Assembly: GCA_012720075.1 (NCBI GenBank)
Contig: JAAXZE010000007.1
Location: 465-64,464, forward strand
Direction of reading: 5' to 3'
Length of the DNA stretch: 64,000 nucleotides
From: Clostridia bacterium
Lineage (GTDB): Bacteria > Bacillota > Peptococcia > Peptococcales > BICA1-8
The notes beneath the pieces were generated by a model that was not told where the DNA came from, made no database searches, and saw only the letters and a program-made list of their open reading frames with translations. Positions within the stretch are counted from its first letter, which is position 1, and each line of letters starts with the position of its first letter. Shown one piece after another: positions 3,889-61,550 of this stretch. A program made the position numbers and the translations under genes.

Positions 3889-4581
3889 ATGAAAATAATG
3901 TCGAAATTTCTCATTTTTGCTTTGATTTTCTCCCTGGTTATTATTGGTTTGGTATCATATTACCTCGAAAAAAGCATTAATAAAGAGGTTGAGAAGGCTA
4001 TTTTGCAAGGATACAGGGGTACGTCCAGCGTTCAGGCTCAATTAAAAATAAACTGGTTTAAAGGAGGCTTAAAGGGAAATATAGAAAGTTTTAAAATAAC
4101 CATAGATGATTGGACCCATAATAACTGGAAGATAAATAATTTTGAAGGCCATTTTAAGAACGTAAAAATTAATTGGGGGCAGCTTTATTCGAAAAAACGG
4201 CTGGTAATTGAGAAAATTGAGCAAGGCAATATTAAGATGGTTATTGATGAAAATAATTTGAATGATGCCCTAAGTCATTACTACCGGGGGTTTACCGTCA
4301 AACTCAATGAAAAAGGTATTTCCATTAATCTTCGAATAAATTTATTGGGATATGAATTTGCAACTTCGGTTCACGGACAATTGAAACCAGGACGAGGAGC
4401 GGAAATATATTTTGTTCCGGAAAAAATAGACATAGCCCAATCCTCCATTCCTGAGAGTTTTAGAAAAGAATTATTACAAAAAGTGAAAATTCCTCTGTCA
4501 TTGGAAAAAACTCCCTTCACTTTTCAAGTAACAACTGTTAAGATAATGCAGGATAAAATAATTATTACCGGGAAAGTGTAA
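3889..4581 (+). CDS. Membrane-anchored hypothetical protein (DUF2993/LmeA-like by recollection)
   Basis: 230-aa ORF with an N-terminal TM helix (FLIFALIFSLVIIGLVSYYL) and an AGAGGA SD. Family assignment is from memory only. Confidence 0.6.
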   Translation: MKIMSKFLIFALIFSLVIIGLVSYYLEKSINKEVEKAILQGYRGTSSVQAQLKINWFKGGLKGNIESFKITIDDWTHNNWKINNFEGHFKNVKINWGQLYSKKRLVIEKIEQGNIKMVIDENNLNDALSHYYRGFTVKLNEKGISINLRINLLGYEFATSVHGQLKPGRGAEIYFVPEKIDIAQSSIPESFRKELLQKVKIPLSLEKTPFTFQVTTVKIMQDKIIITGKV

Positions 4582-4665
4582 ACTAAAGAAAAATGAAGTT
4601 GGGCTGAATATTGATTATAAGCTTACAGGGAAAATAATATCCACTCAGTAAACGGGGGTAGGAAA

Positions 4666-5484
4666 ATGGATGAAAAAACTTTGGCTTTTTTGAAGGATAA
4701 AGCAAAGACAATTAGCAGGCATATTATAGAAATGACAGGGGCTGCCGGCTCCGGACATCCCGGGGGCTCCCTCTCAGCAGCAGATATCATTACTTATTTA
4801 TATTTTAAGGAACTGAAAATTGATCCCAACAACCCCGATTGGCCTGAAAGGGATCGGTTTGTTTTATCCAAAGGACATGCAGCGCCGGTACTTTATGCCG
4901 CTTTGGCCGAAAGGGGATTTTTCCCCGTCGAAGATTTGGTAACATTACGGAAAATTGACTCCTATCTACAGGGGCATCCCGATATGAAAAGGGTAAAAGG
5001 TGTGGAAATGACCACCGGTTCTTTAGGGACAGGCTTTTCTACTGCAGTAGGGATGGCTTTGGCTGCCAGGATGGATAAAAAGGACAATTTCATTTTCGTT
5101 TTGTTAGGCGACGGGGAAATACAGGAAGGACAAGTTTGGGAAGCTGCTATGGCGGCTGCTCATTATAAATTAGATAATATGATAGCCATCTTGGATTATA
5201 ACGGGTTACAAATAGACGGGCCTGTTTCTGAGGTATTATCTCCCGAACCGTTGCCTGATAAATGGCGGGCTTTTGGTTGGGAAGTCTTGGAGATAGACGG
5301 TCACGATTTTGATGCTATTGAAAAAGCCATTAACAAAGCCAAGGAAGTTAAAGGCAAACCGACAATGATAATCGCCAAGACCATAAAAGGAAAAGGTGTT
5401 TCCTTTATGGAGAATGAAGCGGGGTGGCATGGTTCCGCGCCCAACAAGGAACAGGTGGAAAAGGCCTTGGCTGAATTATCCTAA
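4666..5484 (+). CDS. Transketolase, N-terminal (ThDP-binding) subunit
   Basis: [15 protein letters not shown] and [14 protein letters not shown] motifs. 272 aa is typical of split transketolases. Confidence 0.95.
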
Positions 5485-5494
5485 TTACTTACGG

Positions 5495-5765
5495 GTAAAT
5501 TTATTGGGTCTGATAGTACTCAAGAGTTGAGATATTGCGTCTGACATCTCCTCAATGGTTATATTTTTGGTCTGACAATATTAATTGGTTAACATTTTGA
5601 CCTTTAAAATAGAACGATTTGTATATGTGTATAATTAAATTTTATCAGACGCAAAAGATTGCCTTTTAGAACTTTCTAACCCATGAGTTAGACATCCTGG
5701 CAATTGTCAGACGCAAAAGATAGGCTTGTAGACAAATTATCTGACCCGCAAGATAGACCCTTAAG
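5495..5765. repeat. Palindromic word-array element (GTCTGA / TCAGAC words) inserted between the two transketolase subunit genes
   Basis: GTCTGA at 5508, 5539 and 5570 (31-nt period). The inverse TCAGACGCAAAAGAT is at 5645 and 5707 (62 nt apart), around an AT-rich centre. The right end GACCCGCAAGATAGACCC matches the ends of the uvr spacer elements. Confidence 0.8.
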
Positions 5766-5790
5766 ATAAAAGAAACGGAGGTTTTAATAT

Positions 5791-6732
5791 ATGGAAAGTA
5801 TGGCAACCCGGGATGCCTATGGGAAGGCATTGGTGGAATTAGGTAGGATAAATAAAGATGTGGTAGTTTTAGATGCCGATTTATCCAAATCAACTAAAAC
5901 CGACGGCTTTCAAAAAGAGTTTCCGGAGAGGTTTTTTAACATCGGAATAGCTGAACAAAATTTGATAGGCTGTGCTGCAGGTTTTGCAACTTCGGGCAAA
6001 ATCCCCTTTGCCAGTTCCTTTGCTGTCTTTGCCACCGGCAGGGCCTACGACCAGATTAGAAATTCTGTAAGCTATTCCCACTTAAATGTCAAAATTGCCG
6101 CTTCCCATGCCGGTATCACCGTTGGCGAAGACGGCGGTTCCCACCAAATGCTGGAAGATATAGCGTTGATGCGGGCGGTGCCGGGCATGACTGTTATCGT
6201 ACCCGCTGATGGAGTTGAAACAAAAAAAGCCATATTTGCCGCTGCCCAATATGTGGGACCGGTTTATATAAGACTGGGCAGGCCTAAAGTACCTATCATT
6301 TTCGACGAAGATTATATATTTGCCATTGGTAAAGCAGCTGTCATCAAAGAAGGCTCCGATGTGGCCTTAATGGCTACCGGGATAATGGTCAGCGAGGCCC
6401 TAAAAGCGGCGGAGCTGTTACAAAATCAGGGATTTAGCGCCGCTGTGGTGAACATTAGTACTATTAAGCCCATCGATGCGGAAACTATTACCAAGGTAGC
6501 ACAAAAAACCAAGGCTGTAGTTACCTGTGAAGAGCATAATATTTACGGGGGATTAGGCAGCGCTGTGGCAGAGGTTTTAGTTGAAAATTGTCCTGTTCCC
6601 ATGGAAAGAATAGGTGTGAAAGATGTGTTCGGCCGGTCGGGCAAGCCCCAGGAGCTCATGGAGAAATACGGTTTGACAGCTAAGGATATTGTCGATGCCG
6701 CCTGTAAGGCTATGGCCAGGAAAACAAAGTAA
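5791..6732 (+). CDS. Transketolase, C-terminal (pyrimidine-binding) subunit
   Basis: FNIGIAEQN and EDGGSHQ motifs. 313 aa. GGAGG SD. Confidence 0.95.
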   Translation: MESMATRDAYGKALVELGRINKDVVVLDADLSKSTKTDGFQKEFPERFFNIGIAEQNLIGCAAGFATSGKIPFASSFAVFATGRAYDQIRNSVSYSHLNVKIAASHAGITVGEDGGSHQMLEDIALMRAVPGMTVIVPADGVETKKAIFAAAQYVGPVYIRLGRPKVPIIFDEDYIFAIGKAAVIKEGSDVALMATGIMVSEALKAAELLQNQGFSAAVVNISTIKPIDAETITKVAQKTKAVVTCEEHNIYGGLGSAVAEVLVENCPVPMERIGVKDVFGRSGKPQELMEKYGLTAKDIVDAACKAMARKTK

Positions 6733-6747
6733 TTTCATAAAAAAATA

Positions 6748-6775
6748 AGGGGGCCTGGGGCCCCTGTTTTTATTT
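6748..6775. terminator. Bidirectional intrinsic terminator between convergent genes
   Basis: GGGGC-CTGGG-GCCCC hairpin with an A-run upstream and a T-run downstream. Confidence 0.75.
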
Positions 6776-10994: not shown

Positions 10995-11148
10995 CTGTAG
11001 CTACAGTTATTAAGGTTAAGGTTTCGCTGCGCTAGGTTAAAGGTTGAGGTTAGAATACAAAAACGTGACATTGTGTCACCGTGCCATCGTGACATCGATT
11101 TTCAGTTGGGAAAGTTGGAATGTAATTCTCAACTCTCCATTCTCAATT
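10995..11148. repeat. Composite intergenic repeat, module order C-B(rc)-A-E-D(rc)
   Basis: CTGTAGCTACAG palindrome at 10995-11006. B module at 11010-11052. A module at 11062-11098, nearly identical to 1508-1545. D module at 11125-11148 is the reverse complement of 17671-17699. Confidence 0.85.
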
Positions 11149-14914: not shown

Positions 14915-16320
14915 CTAAATCCTGTATTTACCCAAAGTTCGGTCTCCTTTAACCACATGGACGGCGCAAGAAAAACAAGGGTCAAAGGAGCGAATTACCC
15001 GCCCCACTTCAATCAGGCTGTCCATATTATTTATCGGTGTACCTATTAATGCTTTTTCTACAGGACCAGGGTTATCTTTACCGTCCCTGGGGGAGAAATT
15101 CCAGGCGCTGGGAGTTACTACCTGGTAATGGGCAATCCGGCCGTTTTTTATTTTTACCCAATGGCCTAAAGGCCCCCGCATGGAATCAATTAATCCTGTA
15201 CCTTCGGTCTCAGACAAAGGTTCATATTTTTTTAGTGAACCTTGGTTTATGTTTAGGTCTTCCAGCCAGGTAAACATGCCTTTTACAATTTCCCTTAGCT
15301 CTAGAGCCCGGGCAATGTTCCGGTCATTGACAGATACTCCCCTTCGATATATACCGTTAATCCAGAGACGGGCCAAGGGCCCTCCCTCAAATGGCTTATC
15401 CTGATAACGGGGGGCTTTAATCCAGGAATAAGCTCCCGGTTTTTGGTCGTCGGGGATGGTTTTTTCCTCATATGGATGACGGCCTGTATCCACTTCTTGA
15501 TAAAAGGAATTTGTTACTTCTTCGGTTATAAGTTTTGGCTCAATGCTTTTAGCTTCCTGAGAAAAATTTTCCGCAAAACCCGGTTTAAGCAAAGGTGATT
15601 TGTTATCGGTCAGGGGAAACATGCCATAGGTTATTAGGTTGCCGTAACCTTTGCCGATTTCATAATAATCGGGGTAATATTGGGCTACTGTATAGACGTC
15701 AGGAATATATTTTTCTTCCACAAAGGTTTGGATTTCTTTAAGGATGGAGAAAAACATATTTATTTTTTCAGCATTAGGTTTTTCCGCTATTCCGCCGGGC
15801 AAAATGGTTTGCTGATGGGGGCTTTGGCTCCCCAGATGGCCACCAACTGGTGGGCCTTGGCGCTTAAATGGATGGCAAGCCAGTAATTTTCGAACAGTGT
15901 TTTTTCAATATTGGGAGGAATTCGATAATCACCGGGCATTAACGGACGAAAAGGCGATGTTTCCGGACCCCGGGCATAATCGGGTAAAGTCAAGATATAA
16001 AACTGGCGCAGATGATTCTGGATAAAATCCGCCCCTACTATCAGGTTGCGAAGGAGGTAACCGTTATGGGCCGGGCTTATCCGGTATGCATCTTCTAAAG
16101 CTAAGGTACTGGCAAGGGCATGGGCAGTGGAACAAATACCGCATATTCTCTGAGAATAAAGGGGAGCATCCAAGGGGTGACGGTTTTCAAGCATTAGTTC
16201 AAATCCCCGGAATAAAGGGCTGTTAACCCAGGCATCGGTAATCACACCGTTATATACTTCTACTTCAACTTCCAAAGGTTCGTGGATTCTGGTTAGAGGA
16301 AAAACCTTTTTTTTCACCAC
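14915..16320 (-). pseudogene. [NiFe] hydrogenase large subunit, split by a 1-nt frameshift in a C5 (plus-strand G5) run at 15817-15821
   Basis: ORF 15787..16320 carries the N-terminal ligand motif RICGICSTAH. ORF 14915..15802 carries the C-terminal DPCFSCAVH plus a cleavable tail. The conserved GAKAPHQQTILPGG is recovered only by shifting -1 after GCC CCC. Confidence 0.8.
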
Positions 16321-17604: not shown

Positions 17605-17630
17605 AATTTATTTCTCCCCGCCTAAAATAT

Positions 17631-17799
17631 TAGTGTTTTAGTGTGTGAGTGTGAAAGTGTGTAAGATTAGTTGAGAATTGAGAATGAGAGTTGAGAATGT
17701 TCCTTTCCACTTCTTCCAACAATCCATTTTTTCAGCTAAATATATTAACCTTAACCTAGTGAAGCGCAACCTTAACCTTAAAAAACTGTAGAACTGCAG
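17631..17799. repeat. Composite intergenic repeat, module order F-D-E-B-C, in the leader of the hydrogenase operon
   Basis: F GTGTGTGAGTGTGAAAGTGTGTAAG. D TTGAGAATTGAGAATGAGAGTTGAGAATG. B TTAACCTTAACCTAGTGAAGCGCAACCTTAACCTTA. C AAAAACTGTAGAACTGCAG. Collinear with the reverse complement of 10995-11148 apart from the missing A module. Confidence 0.85.
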
Positions 17800-19953: not shown

Positions 19954-19954
19954 G

Positions 19955-20290
19955 CTTTGGGGCTATTTTTGGGGTCGGCATGACGGCGTGACGTCTTTGG
20001 GGTTACAATGCACGTCAGTATGACGTCTTACAGGTTATGTCACAGGTCCGCATGACGGCCTACAGGTTATATTTTAGGTCCGCATAATGGTTTAGGTGAT
20101 AATTTACAGAAAATATTTATATTTTGCTGACCCATGATATTGGCTTGGTAGACGTCATGCTGACCAAAAAGTAGCGGAGGAGCCGTCATGCCGTCCCAAA
20201 ATGTTGCCTGTTAGCCGTCATGCAGACCCTAGAGTTTAACCCGTTAGCTGTAATGCTTGACCCTAAAAGATGACCCACTAGCTACAGGAG
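19955..20290. repeat. Imperfect palindrome of about 335 nt built from four degenerate ~32-nt units per arm (core GCATGACG / CGTCATGC)
   Basis: Left-arm cores at 19978, 20018, 20050 and 20082. Right-arm inverse cores at 20153, 20184, 20216 and 20249. Symmetry centre near 20120. Confidence 0.85.
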
Positions 20291-20299
20291 GGAATAGAC

Positions 20300-23128: not shown

Positions 23129-23365
23129 GCATGACGGCTCTAAAGCTATTCTGCACGTCAGTATTAAAACAATAACTAGCTTGATTACTACAGGCAGCTT
23201 GCGCAAAAAGTATTATAAAAAAACCGACCTAATATTTTACTTGGTAGACGTCACACCGACCCAATGTTTAACTCCGGTGACGTCACTCCGGCCTTATATC
23301 TAAACCCGTGAGCCGTCATGCTGACCCGAAAGATTGCAAAGCAGCCATCATGCCACCCAAGGGAG
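23129..23365. repeat. Second member of the GCATGACG/CGTCATGC element family, in the uvrA-uvrC spacer
   Basis: GCATGACGGC starts immediately after the uvrA stop. CTTGGTAGACGTCA (23240) is shared with 20144. GCCGTCATGCTGACCCGAAAGAT lies at 23302-23324. An internal ACTAGCTTGATTACTACAGG module lies at 23175-23194. Confidence 0.8.
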
Positions 23366-23374
23366 GTGACTTTC

Positions 23375-25234
23375 TTGTTGCAAGACAAAATTAACGCTTT
23401 ACCCGCGAAACCCGGAGTGTATCTAATGAAAAATGCCGAAGGGGAGATCATTTATGTGGGTAAAGCCGTTTCGCTGAAAAACAGGGTTAAATCCTATTTT
23501 CAAAGTAAAAGGCATGATTCGGCCAAAACCAGGGCTTTAGTTAAAAATATCGCCGATTTGGAATACATTATTACCGATAATGAACTGGAAGCCTTAATCT
23601 TGGAATGCAATTTGATTAAGAAACACAGGCCGAAATATAACATTAGCCTTAAAGATGATAAAACTTACCCTTATCTTAAGATAACCGCCGAAGAATTTCC
23701 CCGGGTTATTGTAACCCGTAAGGTTTATAAAGACGGAGCAAAATATTTCGGCCCCTATACCAGTGCCACAAGCCTCAGGGAAACCGTTGAATTATTAAAA
23801 AAGCTGTTTCCTTTCCGCAGTTGCAATCAAAAGGTATTTTCCAATGAGAGGCCTTGTCTGAACGCCTATATCAAAAGATGTCTGGCCCCCTGTCAGGGGG
23901 GTATTACCAGGGAACAGTACGGTGAAATCATTAAACAGGTTGAACTTTTTTTGGAAGGCAAACAAGAGGCTTTGATAATAAAGCTGGAAAATGAAATGGA
24001 ACAGGCGGCATTGAACCTGGAGTTTGAGCGGGCGGCCCAATTAAGGGACCAGATAATTAGTATTAAACAGGTTATAGAAAAACAGAAAATTGTTTCCGCC
24101 GGTGATGAAGACCAGGATGTTATGGCTATGGCCAGAGGTTTTAACGAAGTTTGTGTCCAGGTTTTTTTCATCAGAGGTGGAAAACTGATTGGCCGGGAGA
24201 ATTTCTTTTTAAAAGGGACCGATGATATGGAGCGTTCCGAAGTGCTGGAAGCTTTTATAAAGCAATACTACATTCAGCAGGATTTTGTACCCAAGGAAAT
24301 ACTGGTAGAAACCGAATTACCTGAAGTAAAGGTTCTGGAACAATGGCTTTCAGAAAAGAAGGGACAACGGGTATATATCAAGGTCCCCAAAAAAGGAGAA
24401 AGAAAGGAACTCTTGGAACTGGTAGCCAAAAATGCCTTAGAGGCTATGGAAAAAGCGGACCTGGAAAGAGAGCAGAAGAAAAGTATGACTGAAGGAGCTT
24501 TATTGGAATTGCAAAAAGAACTGGCTTTGCCCAAGCTGCCCCTTCGTATTGAATGTTATGATATATCCAATACCCAAGGAACGGAAACTGTAGCTTCAAT
24601 GGTAGTCTTTGAAGGCGGTAAGCCTAAAAAGGACCAATACCGCAGGTTCAGGATAAAAACGGTGGAAGGCCCTAATGACTTTGCCAGTATGTACGAGGTA
24701 ATAACCCGCAGATTTCGTAACGCCAGGGAAGAAAACAACTCCGGCGACCAAGGGAAATTTTCATCTTTGCCCGATTTGGTCATTATTGACGGTGGTAAAG
24801 GACAATTGCAGTCTGCCAGGAAAGCCATGGAGGAGCAGGGGTATGCTTATATCCCCACCTATGGCCTGGCCAAGCGGGAGGAATGGCTTTTTTTCGAAGA
24901 GGAATCGGAGCCCATTATCCTACCCCGTTCTTCCAAGGCCCTCTTTCTTCTGCAGCGGATCAGAGACGAAGCTCACCGTTTTGCTATAACTTATCACAGA
25001 AGCTTACGGGGTAAAAGGAACTTGGCTTCCATCCTGGATGATATCCATGGTATTGGGGAGAAAAGAAAGAAAAAACTCCTGCAGCATTTCGGCTCTTTTA
25101 AAAAAATTCAATCGGCAAGTATTGAAGAGCTTCAAGAGGTAGAAGGAATTAACCGCAAAGTTGCCGAAGCAGTATACGATTACCTTCGCACTCACCAGGA
25201 TTTATTGCTTAGAACTAGAAATAGTGAGGATTAA
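23375..25234 (+). CDS. uvrC: Excinuclease ABC subunit C
   Basis: GIY-YIG (GVYLMKNAEGEIIYVGKA), UVR domain, endonuclease and HhH2 C-terminus. TTG 23375 lies 8 nt after GGAGG; the listed ORF start 23318 lies inside the repeat. Confidence 0.93.
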   Translation: MLQDKINALPAKPGVYLMKNAEGEIIYVGKAVSLKNRVKSYFQSKRHDSAKTRALVKNIADLEYIITDNELEALILECNLIKKHRPKYNISLKDDKTYPYLKITAEEFPRVIVTRKVYKDGAKYFGPYTSATSLRETVELLKKLFPFRSCNQKVFSNERPCLNAYIKRCLAPCQGGITREQYGEIIKQVELFLEGKQEALIIKLENEMEQAALNLEFERAAQLRDQIISIKQVIEKQKIVSAGDEDQDVMAMARGFNEVCVQVFFIRGGKLIGRENFFLKGTDDMERSEVLEAFIKQYYIQQDFVPKEILVETELPEVKVLEQWLSEKKGQRVYIKVPKKGERKELLELVAKNALEAMEKADLEREQKKSMTEGALLELQKELALPKLPLRIECYDISNTQGTETVASMVVFEGGKPKKDQYRRFRIKTVEGPNDFASMYEVITRRFRNAREENNSGDQGKFSSLPDLVIIDGGKGQLQSARKAMEEQGYAYIPTYGLAKREEWLFFEEESEPIILPRSSKALFLLQRIRDEAHRFAITYHRSLRGKRNLASILDDIHGIGEKRKKKLLQHFGSFKKIQSASIEELQEVEGINRKVAEAVYDYLRTHQDLLLRTRNSED

Positions 25235-25774: not shown

Positions 25775-25777
25775 AAA

Positions 25778-25895
25778 TCAGTGTGTAAGTATGACATCTT
25801 AAATTTTATTCTGATTTTCAGTGTGTTTGTGAGTAAGAGATTTTTTAATACTATAGCACTAACCCACTTAAACACTTATGCACTCACTAGCAACT
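25778..25895. repeat. Palindromic word element (GTGTGTAAG/GTGAGTAAG left, CACTTAAACAC/CACTCAC right) ending at the cof RBS
   Basis: Left CAGTGTGTAAG (25780) and CAGTGTGTTTGTGAGTAAG (25820). Right ACCCACTTAAACACTTATGCACTCACTAGCAAC (25862-25894). Confidence 0.7.
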
Positions 25896-26699: not shown

Positions 26700-26816
26700 T
26701 TGGAGGATTTATACAATTTTACCGAAATTATTAATTTTTTATAATTATATGCAGGAATTGAAAAATATACGTCGAAATATTTATAAAAATGGATATCTGT
26801 GGAGGTAATCAAAATA

Positions 26817-27011
26817 ATGAATAGTGCCTCTGAAAAGCTTTTACAAAGGGAAATGGAAAAAGCAAGGCGCCGCCTGCATGCTTATGTTAATGGTGATATA
26901 AGCCTCTTGTTAAATGAGGAAACCTACCGGCTTAGTACGGAGCTGGACCGGCTTATTGTCAATTTAATGAAAAAAAGCCAAAGAAATAAAATGCAAAAAA
27001 CTCAACTTTAA
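26817..27011 (+). CDS. Spo0E-family aspartyl-phosphate phosphatase-like small protein
   Basis: 64 aa, helical, with STELDRLIVNLMKK matching the Spo0E SxxLDxLI signature. GGAGG SD. Confidence 0.6.
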   Translation: MNSASEKLLQREMEKARRRLHAYVNGDISLLLNEETYRLSTELDRLIVNLMKKSQRNKMQKTQL

Positions 27012-27034
27012 TTAAGTTGGGTTATTTTTTTTCT
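27001..27034 (+). terminator. Intrinsic terminator
   Basis: CTCAACTT-TAATT-AAGTTGGG hairpin followed by TTATTTTTTTT. Confidence 0.7.
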
Positions 27035-27121
27035 AAACTAATACTAAAAAAAAGGGTAAAATAGTATTTAAGAAAATTTATAGTTTATAAGGAATAAGTA
27101 AAGTAAAGATGGAGGAGTAGT

Positions 27122-28657: not shown

Positions 28658-28701
28658 AGGCCCTGGTGAACGGTAGCTCAAAATAGAAAGGTTGTTTTTT
28701 T

Positions 28702-31885: not shown

Positions 31886-31955
31886 ATCAATTTAAAAGGA
31901 GTTTTTCTATCGGTGTAGAAATACTTACCATCTAAAATTTTGGGGAGGTGTCAAA

Positions 31956-32123
31956 ATGGCTCATAGAATAACGGATGAGTGTTTAGCCTGTGGAACATGT
32001 ATTGATGAATGCCCTGTAGGTGCAATCAGTGAAGGTGATATTTATGAAATAGATCCCGAACTTTGCACAGATTGCGGTGCCTGTGCTGAAGCTTGCCCAA
32101 CAGGAGCAATTGTTGAAGAATAA
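31956..32123 (+). CDS. 2x[4Fe-4S] ferredoxin (55 aa; below the ORF-track cutoff)
   Basis: My translation is [43 protein letters not shown], with two CxxCxxCxxxCP motifs. GGGGAGG SD. Confidence 0.9.
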
Positions 32124-32133
32124 AACCAATAGT

Positions 32134-32167
32134 AAATGCCACGCCTATTAGCGTGGCATTTATTTTC
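32134..32167 (+). terminator. Intrinsic terminator after the ferredoxin gene
   Basis: AAATGCCACGC-CTATTA-GCGTGGCATTT followed by ATTTTCT. Confidence 0.85.
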
Positions 32168-32341
32168 TGGTGCAATAGCTAATAAACCATTGTCGGCAGA
32201 GATGTTGGGCCAGTAAAAAATTCCTTTAAATACCATGGAATGGGGACTGGTAATATCAGAATAGAATTGTATCAGGAGGAGTTAAATAAAAAGCAGCGAA
32301 TTTAACCAATAGAGATGGTAACTGGTTTTAGGGGGGATAAC

Positions 32342-39799: not shown

Positions 39800-39807
39800 G
39801 ATGATGA

Positions 39808-39867
39808 GGTTAAGGTTAAGGCTAAGGTTAAGGCTAAGGTTAAGGTTAAGGCTAAGGTTAAGGTTAA
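39808..39867 (+). repeat. Hexanucleotide tandem repeat GG(T/C)TAA x10
   Basis: Ten contiguous units starting 9 nt after the gpmI stop. The unit is the reverse-complement word of repeat module B (AACCTTAACC). Confidence 0.95.
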
Positions 39868-39959
39868 GGTTTTACTTAGGTATAAAAGATATATTTTCAT
39901 TAGGTTTAGCTTTTTTGGATTATAGGTAAGCAAACATAGGGGTATAGTAAGCTAATAAA

Positions 39960-56692: not shown

Positions 56693-56907
56693 TAATCTGC
56701 AGCCATTAGCATATTTGCTAATGGTTGCTAATTTTAATTTATAGAATAGGAAAGGGTAATAAATTATTATTTCCAATTAGTCCATTAATTGAAATAATTG
56801 GAGTGCCTTAAGAAATAATTATGAAGCTTGGCAAAGAGGTTAAACTTTTTTAACCCTGATCAGCATAATAAAGCTGGAAAAAAACTTGGTAAGAAGTGGT
56901 GCATAAG

Positions 56908-58166: not shown

Positions 58167-58279
58167 GAGGTTTAGGCTAAGGTTAAGGTTATATTGTATT
58201 TAATATAATAGCTTTATTCCTTTCTCAACCTTAACCTAGCGTAGCGAAACCTTGATCTTAATTTGTTTTAAACTGTCAC
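58167..58279. repeat. Repeat family copy (hairpin of B-module words, then modules B and C)
   Basis: TAGGCTAAGGTTAAGGTT (58173-58190) is inverted relative to AACCTTAACCTAGCGTA (58227-58243). CTCAACCTTAACCTAGCGTAGCGAAACCTTGATCTTA matches 17746-17780. Confidence 0.8.
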
Positions 58280-61195: not shown

Positions 61196-61550
61196 GGGGG
61201 TGTAATGGTTTCGACGGGGGAATTCGGTGGCTTGAGAAGCGAGTCGAGGTCGCACTGGCTCGTTAAACGTTGCACAAAAAATAAACGCTAAAAACAATAA
61301 CTTAGCTTTAGCTGCTTAATTGCAGTCTAACCTCCTACTTGCCTTTGCCTGTGGGGCGAGCAAGGGGGTCACATTAGCAGGCTACTCTTAAGTAACCGCC
61401 TTGTAGCTTAAGGGGAAACTTACAGGGCTGGCCGATGGAAATCCTGTTTGTGGGAGTTCCTGAGGCGAGATGCCAAAACACAAACTACGCTCGTAGATGC
61501 TCAGGTGGTCGATCTTCCGGACAGGGGTTCGACTCCCCTCACCTCCACCA
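61196..61550 (+). ncRNA. ssrA: tmRNA (SsrA), predicted tag reading frame GCT AAA AAC AAT AAC TTA GCT TTA GCT GCT TAA (AKNNNLALAA)
   Basis: The 5' GGGGGTG pairs with the 3' CACCTCCACCA acceptor stem, including G3:U. T-arm GGGGTTCGACTCCCC. The tag ORF ends ..LALAA-TAA. Located directly after smpB. Confidence 0.93.

Follow-up and report, generated by a model that had tools for sequence, protein, structure and literature searches.

Repetitive DNA between bacterial genes has been described in several forms. Repetitive extragenic palindromes (REPs) can stabilise upstream mRNA, some elements of the Correia/NEMIS, ERIC, RUP and BOX type are cut by RNase III or alter mRNA stability, and the mycobacterial interspersed repetitive units (MIRUs) are tandem units of tens of nucleotides in the intercistronic gaps of operons, with a copy number that varies between strains. 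Among the transposons of Drosophila, the units of Foldback (FB) elements include a 31-bp class. The inverted repeats of Galileo are internally repetitive (PMC3573991). Here we compare with these systems a repeat element from a 64,000-nt stretch of a Clostridia bacterium genome (assembly GCA_012720075.1, contig JAAXZE010000007.1), the whole of which is referred to as the window. The element lies in the 306-nt gap (5485-5790) between tktN and tktC, the genes for the two subunits of a split transketolase. With moderate confidence, we read this spacer as a copy, old and in part decayed, of an interspersed repeat that is non-coding and specific to the lineage and that would be transcribed together with its operon, fold back on itself and carry a core word recognised by a specific factor.

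The original prediction, made from the sequence of the window, described a palindromic array of short words in this spacer, and the words were all recovered. GTCTGA recurs at 5508, 5539 and 5570 with an exact period of 31 nt, TCAGACGCAAAAGAT occurs at 5645 and 5707 with no mismatch, weaker TAGAC copies are found at 5689, 5730 and 5755, and the right end CTGACCCGCAAGATAGACCC (5740-5759) lies 17 nt upstream of the GGAGG of tktC. The array is a discrete element between the two genes, as had been proposed; the closest array-free genomes (L003 and L123) have about 52 nt at this place. The features of the locus are as follows.

4666..5484, plus strand: tktN, transketolase N-terminal (thiamine diphosphate-binding) subunit (Pfam Transketolase_N, E 5e-68), with the TAA stop at 5482-5484
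5485..5775, no strand: whole tkt repeat element, with a left arm (reverse units), AT-rich centre and right arm (forward units), from words, repeats, profile and fold
5506..5515, minus strand: left unit 1 core, GGGTCTGATA on the plus strand, reverse complement TATCAGACCC, matching the family core TGTCAGACGC at 8 of 10 positions
5537..5546, minus strand: left unit 2 core, GCGTCTGACA, reverse complement TGTCAGACGC, 10 of 10 positions, a perfect 12-bp complement of 5705-5716
5568..5577, minus strand: left unit 3 core, TGGTCTGACA, matching the family core at 8 of 10 positions
5578..5642, no strand: centre, comprising a degenerate fourth left unit (~5592-5606) and an AT-rich loop, with no promoter match in the promoter scan
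5643..5652, plus strand: right unit 4 (innermost) core, TATCAGACGC, matching the family core at 9 of 10 positions
5673..5692, plus strand: right unit 3, degenerate core TTTCTAACCC (5 of 10 positions), with its own small hairpin TCTAACCCA/TGAGTTAGA at 5675-5692
5705..5714, plus strand: right unit 2 core, TGTCAGACGC, 10 of 10 positions, the best profile match (13.3 bits)
5738..5769, plus strand: right unit 1 (outermost), TATCTGACCC GCAAGATAGACCCTTAAGATAA, terminal, ending just before the tktC ribosome-binding site
5777..5781, plus strand: Shine-Dalgarno GGAGG of tktC, outside the long hairpin
5791..6732, plus strand: tktC, transketolase C-terminal subunit (pyrimidine-binding and C-terminal domains; Pfam Transket_pyr and Transketolase_C)

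The spacer thus holds seven recognisable copies of the core word and one degenerate copy, three to four on the minus strand to the left and four on the plus strand to the right, at steps of 30-33 nt (31 and 31 in the left arm; 30, 32 and 33 in the right arm, where the cores start at 5643, 5673, 5705 and 5738). When written in rows of 31, the left half and the reverse-complemented right half align as a single unit, AT.TTTTGCGTCTGA(C/T)A, and each side contains a weak fourth site (left ~5592-5606, right 5673-5682). The common centre near 5610 that had been suggested for the inverted words stands for the pairs of first left with second right unit and third left with fourth right unit but not for the fully mirrored register, which is centred at 5625.5; both registers arise from the small hairpin that the third right unit makes by itself. 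The promoter and terminator scan gave no match in the spacer; a terminator-like hairpin lies 3' of tktC at 6749-6765. As a candidate promoter in the AT-rich centre we considered TGTGTATAAT (5626-5635), which resembles an extended -10 box, and rejected it, as it has no properly spaced -35, was unreported by the scan and is absent from the centre of the homologous element in the metagenome-assembled genome (MAG) 'Clostridiaceae bacterium BRH_c20a' (locus L007).

The array exceeds what chance would give. Searching the window for the 15-mer with up to three mismatches yielded six matches (1.55 expected for the whole window), five of them inside the tkt spacer and three of these five on the minus strand at 31-nt steps; a repeat search of the window likewise recovered the direct and inverted families of the spacer. 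A unit model derived only from L007 found seven units in the spacer, in the correct orientations and with 64.5 bits in total, while the best of 300 shuffles reached 4.3. Because this model owes nothing to the window, the membership of the tkt element in the family is secure. Furthermore, the 306-nt spacer in an independent assembly (L006; Logan SRR31940690) is identical to that of the window, so the array is not an assembly artefact. Formal tandem-repeat detection, which the original prediction had put forward as a check on the periodicity, gave a divided answer: Tandem Repeats Finder (TRF) misses the tkt array even at a score of 30, but at the same junction of L007 it calls arrays of period 31 and 32.

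To delimit the family, metagenomes were scanned with the pattern TGTCAGACGCAA, 20-22 nt, GTCNGAC. The scan yielded at least 80 loci, and more than 50 of those listed lie on large contigs of metagenome Ga0209643, which includes the organism of L007, since the tkt and uvrA-uvrC elements of L007 are found again at two of its loci (L073 and L100). Using L007-derived unit profiles and counting arrays of at least three units, we found at least 43 unique arrays among the loci listed from the scan, nearly all of them intergenic (two of the 43, uninspected, carried a flag for overlap with an open reading frame). Twenty-four separate co-directional genes, four convergent and four divergent ones, and the other 11 are at locus edges. 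A full element measures 218-644 nt and has 2-11 units per arm, and in every array left-type units are followed by right-type units, never the reverse; solitary arms occur, and paired arms are often unequal (11 vs 5, 9 vs 2). The profile of 212 units shows the core TGTCAGACGC to be near-invariant (1.2-2.0 bits per position), followed by lesser conserved blocks at A14, CC21-22 and AGTA27-30 and little conservation elsewhere. Spacing between units is 32 nt in 58 cases, 31 nt in 27 and 30 nt in 12. The arrays often fill a gap from the upstream stop codon to shortly before the next ribosome-binding site. Several of the full elements that were examined lead at their right end straight into this site (...CTAGACCCnTAAGTAA-GGAGG-ATG), and the upstream stop codon can be supplied by the first left unit (GGGTGA). 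At L091 (170-185) and L112 (1755-1770) of the BRH_c20a-type genome the last codons of the upstream gene together with its TGA lie in the first repeat unit (..CTGGGTGAAC..), thus the array has remodelled the C-terminus of the protein.

Other small repeats were observed in the centres and flanks of the arrays, namely GTGGGCGAGTGGGCGCG with its complement, CCAGTGNCCAGTGCCC, CACCGGTCACCGG, GGTCCCTGGTCCC and TTCGCTTCGCTAGATTAAG (L055 7440-7760; L104 8130-8215 and 8395-8425; L112 3490-3640), which gives the arrays a mosaic make-up. Arrays of the hexamers (AGGTTA/AAGGTT)n, with up to about 18 copies, also recur in intergenic gaps of this lineage (window 39807-39871 and 58168-58191; L007 14202-14307 and 6995-7020; L089 770-795); they often adjoin arrays of the 32-nt units and have their reverse complement nearby. 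An attempt to assign a strand orientation to each element with separate left and right unit models failed: each arm contains an alternation of two unit subtypes, GGGTGAAnAT and GGGTCTAGCT, which leaves such assignments without meaning. In viral contigs, scanned with a generic pattern for three GTCAGAC words at ~32-nt steps, only unrelated tandem repeats of 11 or 33 nt were found.

The relatives of the window TktN are uncultured Clostridia or Peptococcaceae-like MAGs, and their tkt junctions are listed here with the identity of TktN to that of the window.

L006: TktN 99% identical, spacer of 306 nt, identical to the window
L001: TktN 92%, spacer of 104 nt (L001 10820-10923), 8-nt word arrays
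L121: TktN 90%, spacer of 176 nt (L121 1914-2089), 8-nt word arrays
L122: TktN 89%, spacer of 172 nt (L122 2532-2703), 8-nt word arrays
L007: TktN 87%, spacer of 329 nt, five left and four right units of the same family
L003 and L123: TktN 85%, spacer of 52 nt, no array
L124: TktN 80%, spacer of 238 nt, four right-hand units at 31-nt steps

In the L007 tkt gap the same word is better kept, in five left units (..GGGTGAAGATTGAGCGTCTGACAAT..) and four right units (TGTCAGACGCAAGAGTATGTCCGCAAAGTAGC), and its spacer is collinear with that of the window at 73% column identity (MAFFT); read directly, the outermost right unit of the window looks like the last right one of L007, but it is gapped in the MAFFT alignment. 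The junction is therefore occupied also where TktN is only 80-87% identical (L124 and L007), and the 31-nt units of L124 argue for a long residence of the repeat at this site. The 8-nt arrays of L001, L121 and L122 are mirror images as well, with GTGAAAnn on the left and TAGTCACn on the right, and end just before the ribosome-binding site. Mirror-image arrays of such 8-nt words (CGTGACAT, TTAGTGTG) were also seen in the window itself, at 1510-1543, 11064-11097, 17630-17662 and 25775-25877, and may be a short-unit cousin of the 32-nt family.

Outside the tkt locus, three further spacers of the window are probable relatives of the element or resemble a remnant of it.

19954..20285, no strand: uvrB-uvrA spacer element (spacer 19954-20299), ~32-nt units (TRF period 32), core variant (CCGTCATGC)nGACCC, hairpin z -5.1
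23129 to ~23361, no strand: uvrA-uvrC spacer element with the uvr core variant, four right units and one or two left units
28658..28701, no strand: 44-nt spacer resembling a collapsed copy, CTGGTGAAC ... GCTCAAAATAGAAAGG, at a junction that holds a 261-nt array in a BRH_c20a-type genome (L091)

Both uvr spacers share the layout of the tkt element, as had been noticed before. Their unit reads nGACCC, an A-rich stretch, ACCC, GTTAG and then CCGTCATGC; left units are reversed and right units forward. It aligns in register with the tkt unit: nGAC(C/G)C, an A-rich stretch, ACCC, then GTAG or TTAG. In L007 the uvrA-uvrC gap has the same core as the tkt family, in seven and six units. The L007 uvrB-uvrA gap (4391-4820, minus strand, 430 nt) displays a third core variant (CATGATGACAC / GATGCATC; right units ..CACACTGACCTTTAAGCTAGACCC), and the uvrB-uvrA junction of L008 retains only the last one or two right units. 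Repeat units can also create false start codons: the uvrC frame of the window was called from an ATG inside a unit (GTCATGC) at 23318 (region 23318-23375), and the real start is probably TTG at 23376 or 23379, after GGGAGGTG. UvrC of the window (23376-25234) is only ~45% identical to those of L007 (5-1123) and L008 (2-1201), while the adjacent UvrA and UvrB reach 84-88%, which suggests that uvrC was replaced or underwent accelerated evolution. Three other long gaps of the window fold end to end (26700-27121, z -3.2; 31886-32314, z -2.9; 56693-56895, z -5.4; mononucleotide shuffles) with a pair span of 87-95% of the gap, and could be foldback-type elements built from other words.

The internal likeness of the units indicates how the arrays grow. 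One array contains a 96-nt block of three units, repeated three times. Outside the core, likeness is 64% within an arm and 57% between units of different elements, and it rises at lags 2 and 3, to 70% at lag 3; the arrays therefore amplify in tandem, in place. Between loci, copies share only 65-75% identity, with no near-identical pair, which excludes a recent burst. The original prediction had proposed to look in related genomes for an empty site and a target-site duplication, and the outcome was not that of a simple mobile insertion. The 18 boundaries listed, which are blurred by degenerate outer units, show no target-site duplication, and none of the short orthologous spacers is a clean empty site: the tkt spacer of L003 keeps the end-of-unit remnant 'ACACCCAAAAGAATAGGAGG', the short uvrB-uvrA spacer of L008 keeps end-of-unit sequence, and the 44 nt at 28658-28701 of the window match the outer left and outer right ends of the L091 array. 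The picture is one of long-resident arrays that expand, collapse and get replaced, and not of fresh insertions.

This bears directly on the view that the element is a non-autonomous DNA transposon of the miniature or foldback type, with arms that are terminal inverted repeats of transposase-binding sites, and that it entered the tktN-tktC junction by cut-and-paste. Inverted arms with oriented, sequence-conserved repeated sites, the same head-to-head polarity in all 43 arrays, dozens of intergenic copies, a core conserved as sequence as expected of a transposase site, and spacers that range from 52 to 329 nt at the same junction among relatives are all in its favour. It is at odds with the lack of visible target-site duplications, the terminal-unit remnants at 'empty' sites and the low identity between loci. 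Moreover, the number of units per arm is not fixed, arms are often unequal or solitary, and the sampled loci (~600 kb of contigs) contain neither an autonomous element with the same ends nor a gene between a left and a right arm, although the proteins of these contigs were not scanned and the whole genome was not searched. We regard a transposon as an unlikely explanation of the tkt spacer.

The conservation pattern of the unit brings in a second view, that of a DNA-level array of phased sites for a host nucleoid-associated or regulatory protein, placed every three helical turns in mirrored arms and serving a chromosomal role. The core of 10 nt hardly varies in a unit that otherwise drifts, the spacing is tightly 31-32 bp (~3 x 10.5), both arms strictly point outward, and the core is conserved without compensation in pairing: in 33 pairs of core words that face each other in a hairpin, none of 27 variant positions is compensated in the partner. 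Yet no candidate protein is known and no adjacent gene is common to the loci, the core variants differ (GTCATGC-nGACCC in the window uvr spacers, GATGCATC-type in L007 uvrB-uvrA, TGTCAGT in L008), many related genomes have no arrays at the same junctions, and the spacing may be merely the inherited unit length. We hold such a chromosomal role to be doubtful. An equally tentative extension is that the arrays form a new bacterial 'foldback' class of repeats, phased sites of a putative dedicated protein, which would colonise gene junctions and be retained because they act, as DNA or as mRNA, as intercistronic modules that may insulate, process or re-couple cistrons; if this were true, the 10-nt word and the spacing of three helical turns would be functional and not merely inherited.

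A third view takes the spacer as a selected structure of the operon mRNA, for instance one that is processed by RNase III, acts as a stability barrier or keeps the translation of tktC coupled to that of tktN. As RNA, the tkt gap is predicted to form a single hairpin over ~95% of its length (z -3.6, or -4.1 against mononucleotide shuffles), with the GGAGG of tktC unpaired outside the long stem, so that the element runs from the stop codon to a free ribosome-binding site. The uvrB-uvrA spacer also beats its shuffles, and the L007 copies form nearly continuous predicted stems of -134 and -150 kcal/mol. In addition, two genomes have elements at all three junctions (tkt, uvrB-uvrA and uvrA-uvrC), and in the L007 set the sense strand folds better than the antisense strand in five of eight elements. 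As a test of selection on RNA we rejected this last comparison, because over 21 elements the difference is inconsistent and follows the G content. Opposite arms of one element are 58% alike, against 57% for arms of different elements, and together with the uncompensated core positions and the inconsistent strand asymmetry this shows that the family conserves sequence, not pairing. Unequal or solitary arms, arrays between convergent and divergent genes, and close relatives that manage with a 52-nt spacer are further difficulties. A selected mRNA structure is in our view improbable, somewhat more so than the two preceding alternatives. The same evidence speaks against the suggestion of the original prediction that, since the uvr elements repeat a different word, it is the structure and not the sequence that is conserved: the uvr units align in register and the core is near-invariant. 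Both the RNA hairpin and the DNA array could coexist with the reading of the spacer as an interspersed repeat. As for chance similarity within an AT-rich spacer, which the silence of TRF and the poor conservation between the words might have suggested, it is practically without probability and is already refuted by the regularly stepped 15-mer matches, the score of the independent profile and the alignment with the well-preserved homologue in L007.

We therefore return to the old interspersed repeat as the preferred reading of the tkt spacer. The element would be transcribed together with tktN and tktC, and the transcript is predicted to fold back into one long imperfect hairpin that loops out ~290 nt. 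Such a fold-back would bring the tktN stop near the tktC ribosome-binding site and leave this site free; stop and free site kept close would explain why the element is tolerated inside a two-subunit operon. As conservation of the core concerns its sequence and not its pairing, the core most likely serves as a recognition site for a putative sequence-specific factor, which may be a protein that spreads or homogenises the repeats, or a DNA- or RNA-binding protein of the host. The spread between loci would have taken place long ago or by ectopic gene conversion, and not by recent cut-and-paste insertion.

Several observations weigh against this reading. Co-transcription and folding are themselves what we infer from the sequence. 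No binding or mobilising protein was identified, and no target-site duplication, clean empty site or autonomous copy was found that would account for the spread to more than 43 loci. The closer relatives L001, L121 and L122 (TktN 89-92%) carry different arrays, of the 8-nt words, at the tkt junction, which implies fast turnover and makes the 'orthologous' status of the tkt copies uncertain. In the one comparable orthologous outermost unit, the core diverged at 3 of 10 positions and the rest at 7 of 20; with a core that diverges about as much as the rest of the unit, selection on the core in place is unsupported for the window copy. The first left unit of the window (reverse complement TATCAGACCC) and the first right unit (TATCTGACCC) share two rare core variants (TATC..ACCC), which look compensatory, contrary to the lack of covariation found in the other genome. 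The link to the uvr spacers is weak, too. The two best non-self matches of the tkt-unit profile in the window are uvrB-uvrA units, with E values of 0.3 and 0.9, and the BRH_c20a-derived model scores 10.6 and 4.0 bits on the uvr spacers, values equalled by none and by three of 300 shuffles, respectively; the reverse search with a uvr-unit profile matched the tkt units at noise level only. As these weak matches exceed the shuffles and the units align in register, the uvr units look like diverged members of the family and not like an unrelated word, and the uvr elements are probably diverged relatives of the tkt family.

The family, to date confined to uncultured Clostridia of the subsurface, is evidence that intergenic repeats of bacteria can take the form of two mirror-image minisatellites, and not only that of single hairpins or fixed-length miniature transposons. 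Since the arrays lie inside operons for multi-subunit or pathway proteins (tktN/tktC, uvrB/uvrA/uvrC, glmM), they may shift the expression of adjacent genes relative to each other; they are also a natural experiment on the amount of spacer that is tolerated at an operon junction. The near-invariant 10-mer without pairing compensation points to a putative sequence-specific factor. On the practical side, the arrays can break short-read assemblies, spawn spurious small reading frames and shift predicted starts and stops.

Apart from the repeats, two genes of the window are interrupted. In prfB (1828-2829) an in-frame TAA (2305-2307) at a conserved position splits release factor 2 into two frames, whereas the L001 gene is uninterrupted; it could reflect a pseudogene, an assembly error or recoding. 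The gene for the large subunit of a NiFe(Se) hydrogenase (14915-16320, minus strand) has a frameshift near 15790-15802, while L007 has a single frame of 469 aa. Together the two hint at assembly errors or gene decay in the window genome.

In databases and literature we found no counterpart. At gathering scores, Rfam 15 gave no match in the tkt spacer or in L007, and at a cut-off of E 5 the spacer has only chance-level matches (E 0.16-3.7); the only Rfam match in the window is a tmRNA (61196-61550) with the tag peptide AKNNNLALAA. No CRISPR repeat matched at gathering score, the only match being at chance level (E 0.94), and a CRISPR array was rejected as an identity for the element in view of a period of only 31-32 nt, a 'spacer' part that is diverged repeat with conserved blocks, and two inverted arms. 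A literature search by keyword and by repeat words found no description of the family, and the only repeats that the genome paper of Thermanaerosceptrum, a related subsurface organism, takes up are those of CRISPR (PMC7988955). We thus have a real and abundant family that is apparently undescribed.

Among known systems, the arrays share with oriented sites at the ends of Mu, Tn7 and IS21 and with iteron and centromere arrays the conserved 10-20 bp words mirrored on two sides. Those systems, however, have two to four fixed sites per end and stand beside transposition, replication or partition genes, whereas here up to 11 sites in variable number have housekeeping neighbours. Miniature inverted-repeat transposable elements have inverted arms as well, but occur as copies of uniform length and high mutual identity, unlike the present elements of 218-644 nt with 2-11 units per arm and 65-75% identity. 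MIRUs resemble the family in their tandem units of tens of nucleotides and variable copy number in intercistronic gaps of operons, but they are direct arrays only, with small reading frames that overlap stop and start, while the elements described here have two inverted arms and no through-reading frame. Correia/NEMIS, ERIC, RUP and BOX elements are likewise intergenic (100-400 nt) and fold into long hairpins in operon transcripts; they differ in their fixed length, defined ends, frequent target duplications and lack of phased 32-nt units. By analogy with them, RNase III cleavage or a change in mRNA stability would most likely be the kind of effect that the arrays exert.

The likeness to REPs and bacterial interspersed mosaic elements (BIMEs), of Enterobacteria and Pseudomonas, including the REPINs that RAYT (Y1) transposases mobilise, is broader. 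Both are high-copy, lineage-specific, extragenic palindromic DNA, often located between a stop codon and the next gene of an operon, both form clusters of variable copy number mixed with small motifs (here (AAGGTT)n, TTCGCTTCGCTAGATTAAG and CCAGTGNCCAGTGCCC in the same gaps), and both would be transcribed with their neighbours, which for the present family is a prediction. The units of our family, in contrast to the 20-40-nt imperfect palindromes of REPs, are asymmetric and not hairpins, the palindrome existing only between whole arms (with a weak ATTG...CAAT flank around some cores), and all units of an arm point the same way, head to tail, where those of REP clusters alternate. The family has not preserved the GTAG found at the 5' end of REP units, as AGTA (27-30) is conserved at 80-94% and position 31 is G in only 12% of the 212 units, and no RAYT gene was seen, with the genome not searched and the proteins of the sampled contigs not scanned. 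The FB and Galileo transposons of Drosophila have long inverted arms of tandem short units whose length varies by gain and loss of units, as here; they are eukaryotic, of kilobase scale and equipped with known transposases and target-site duplications, neither of which was identified for these bacterial elements of 0.2-0.6 kb. Thus the family fits the bacterial interspersed palindromic repeats in a broad sense but fails the defining features of REPs and BIMEs, and in architecture its closest analogue is the eukaryotic foldback element.

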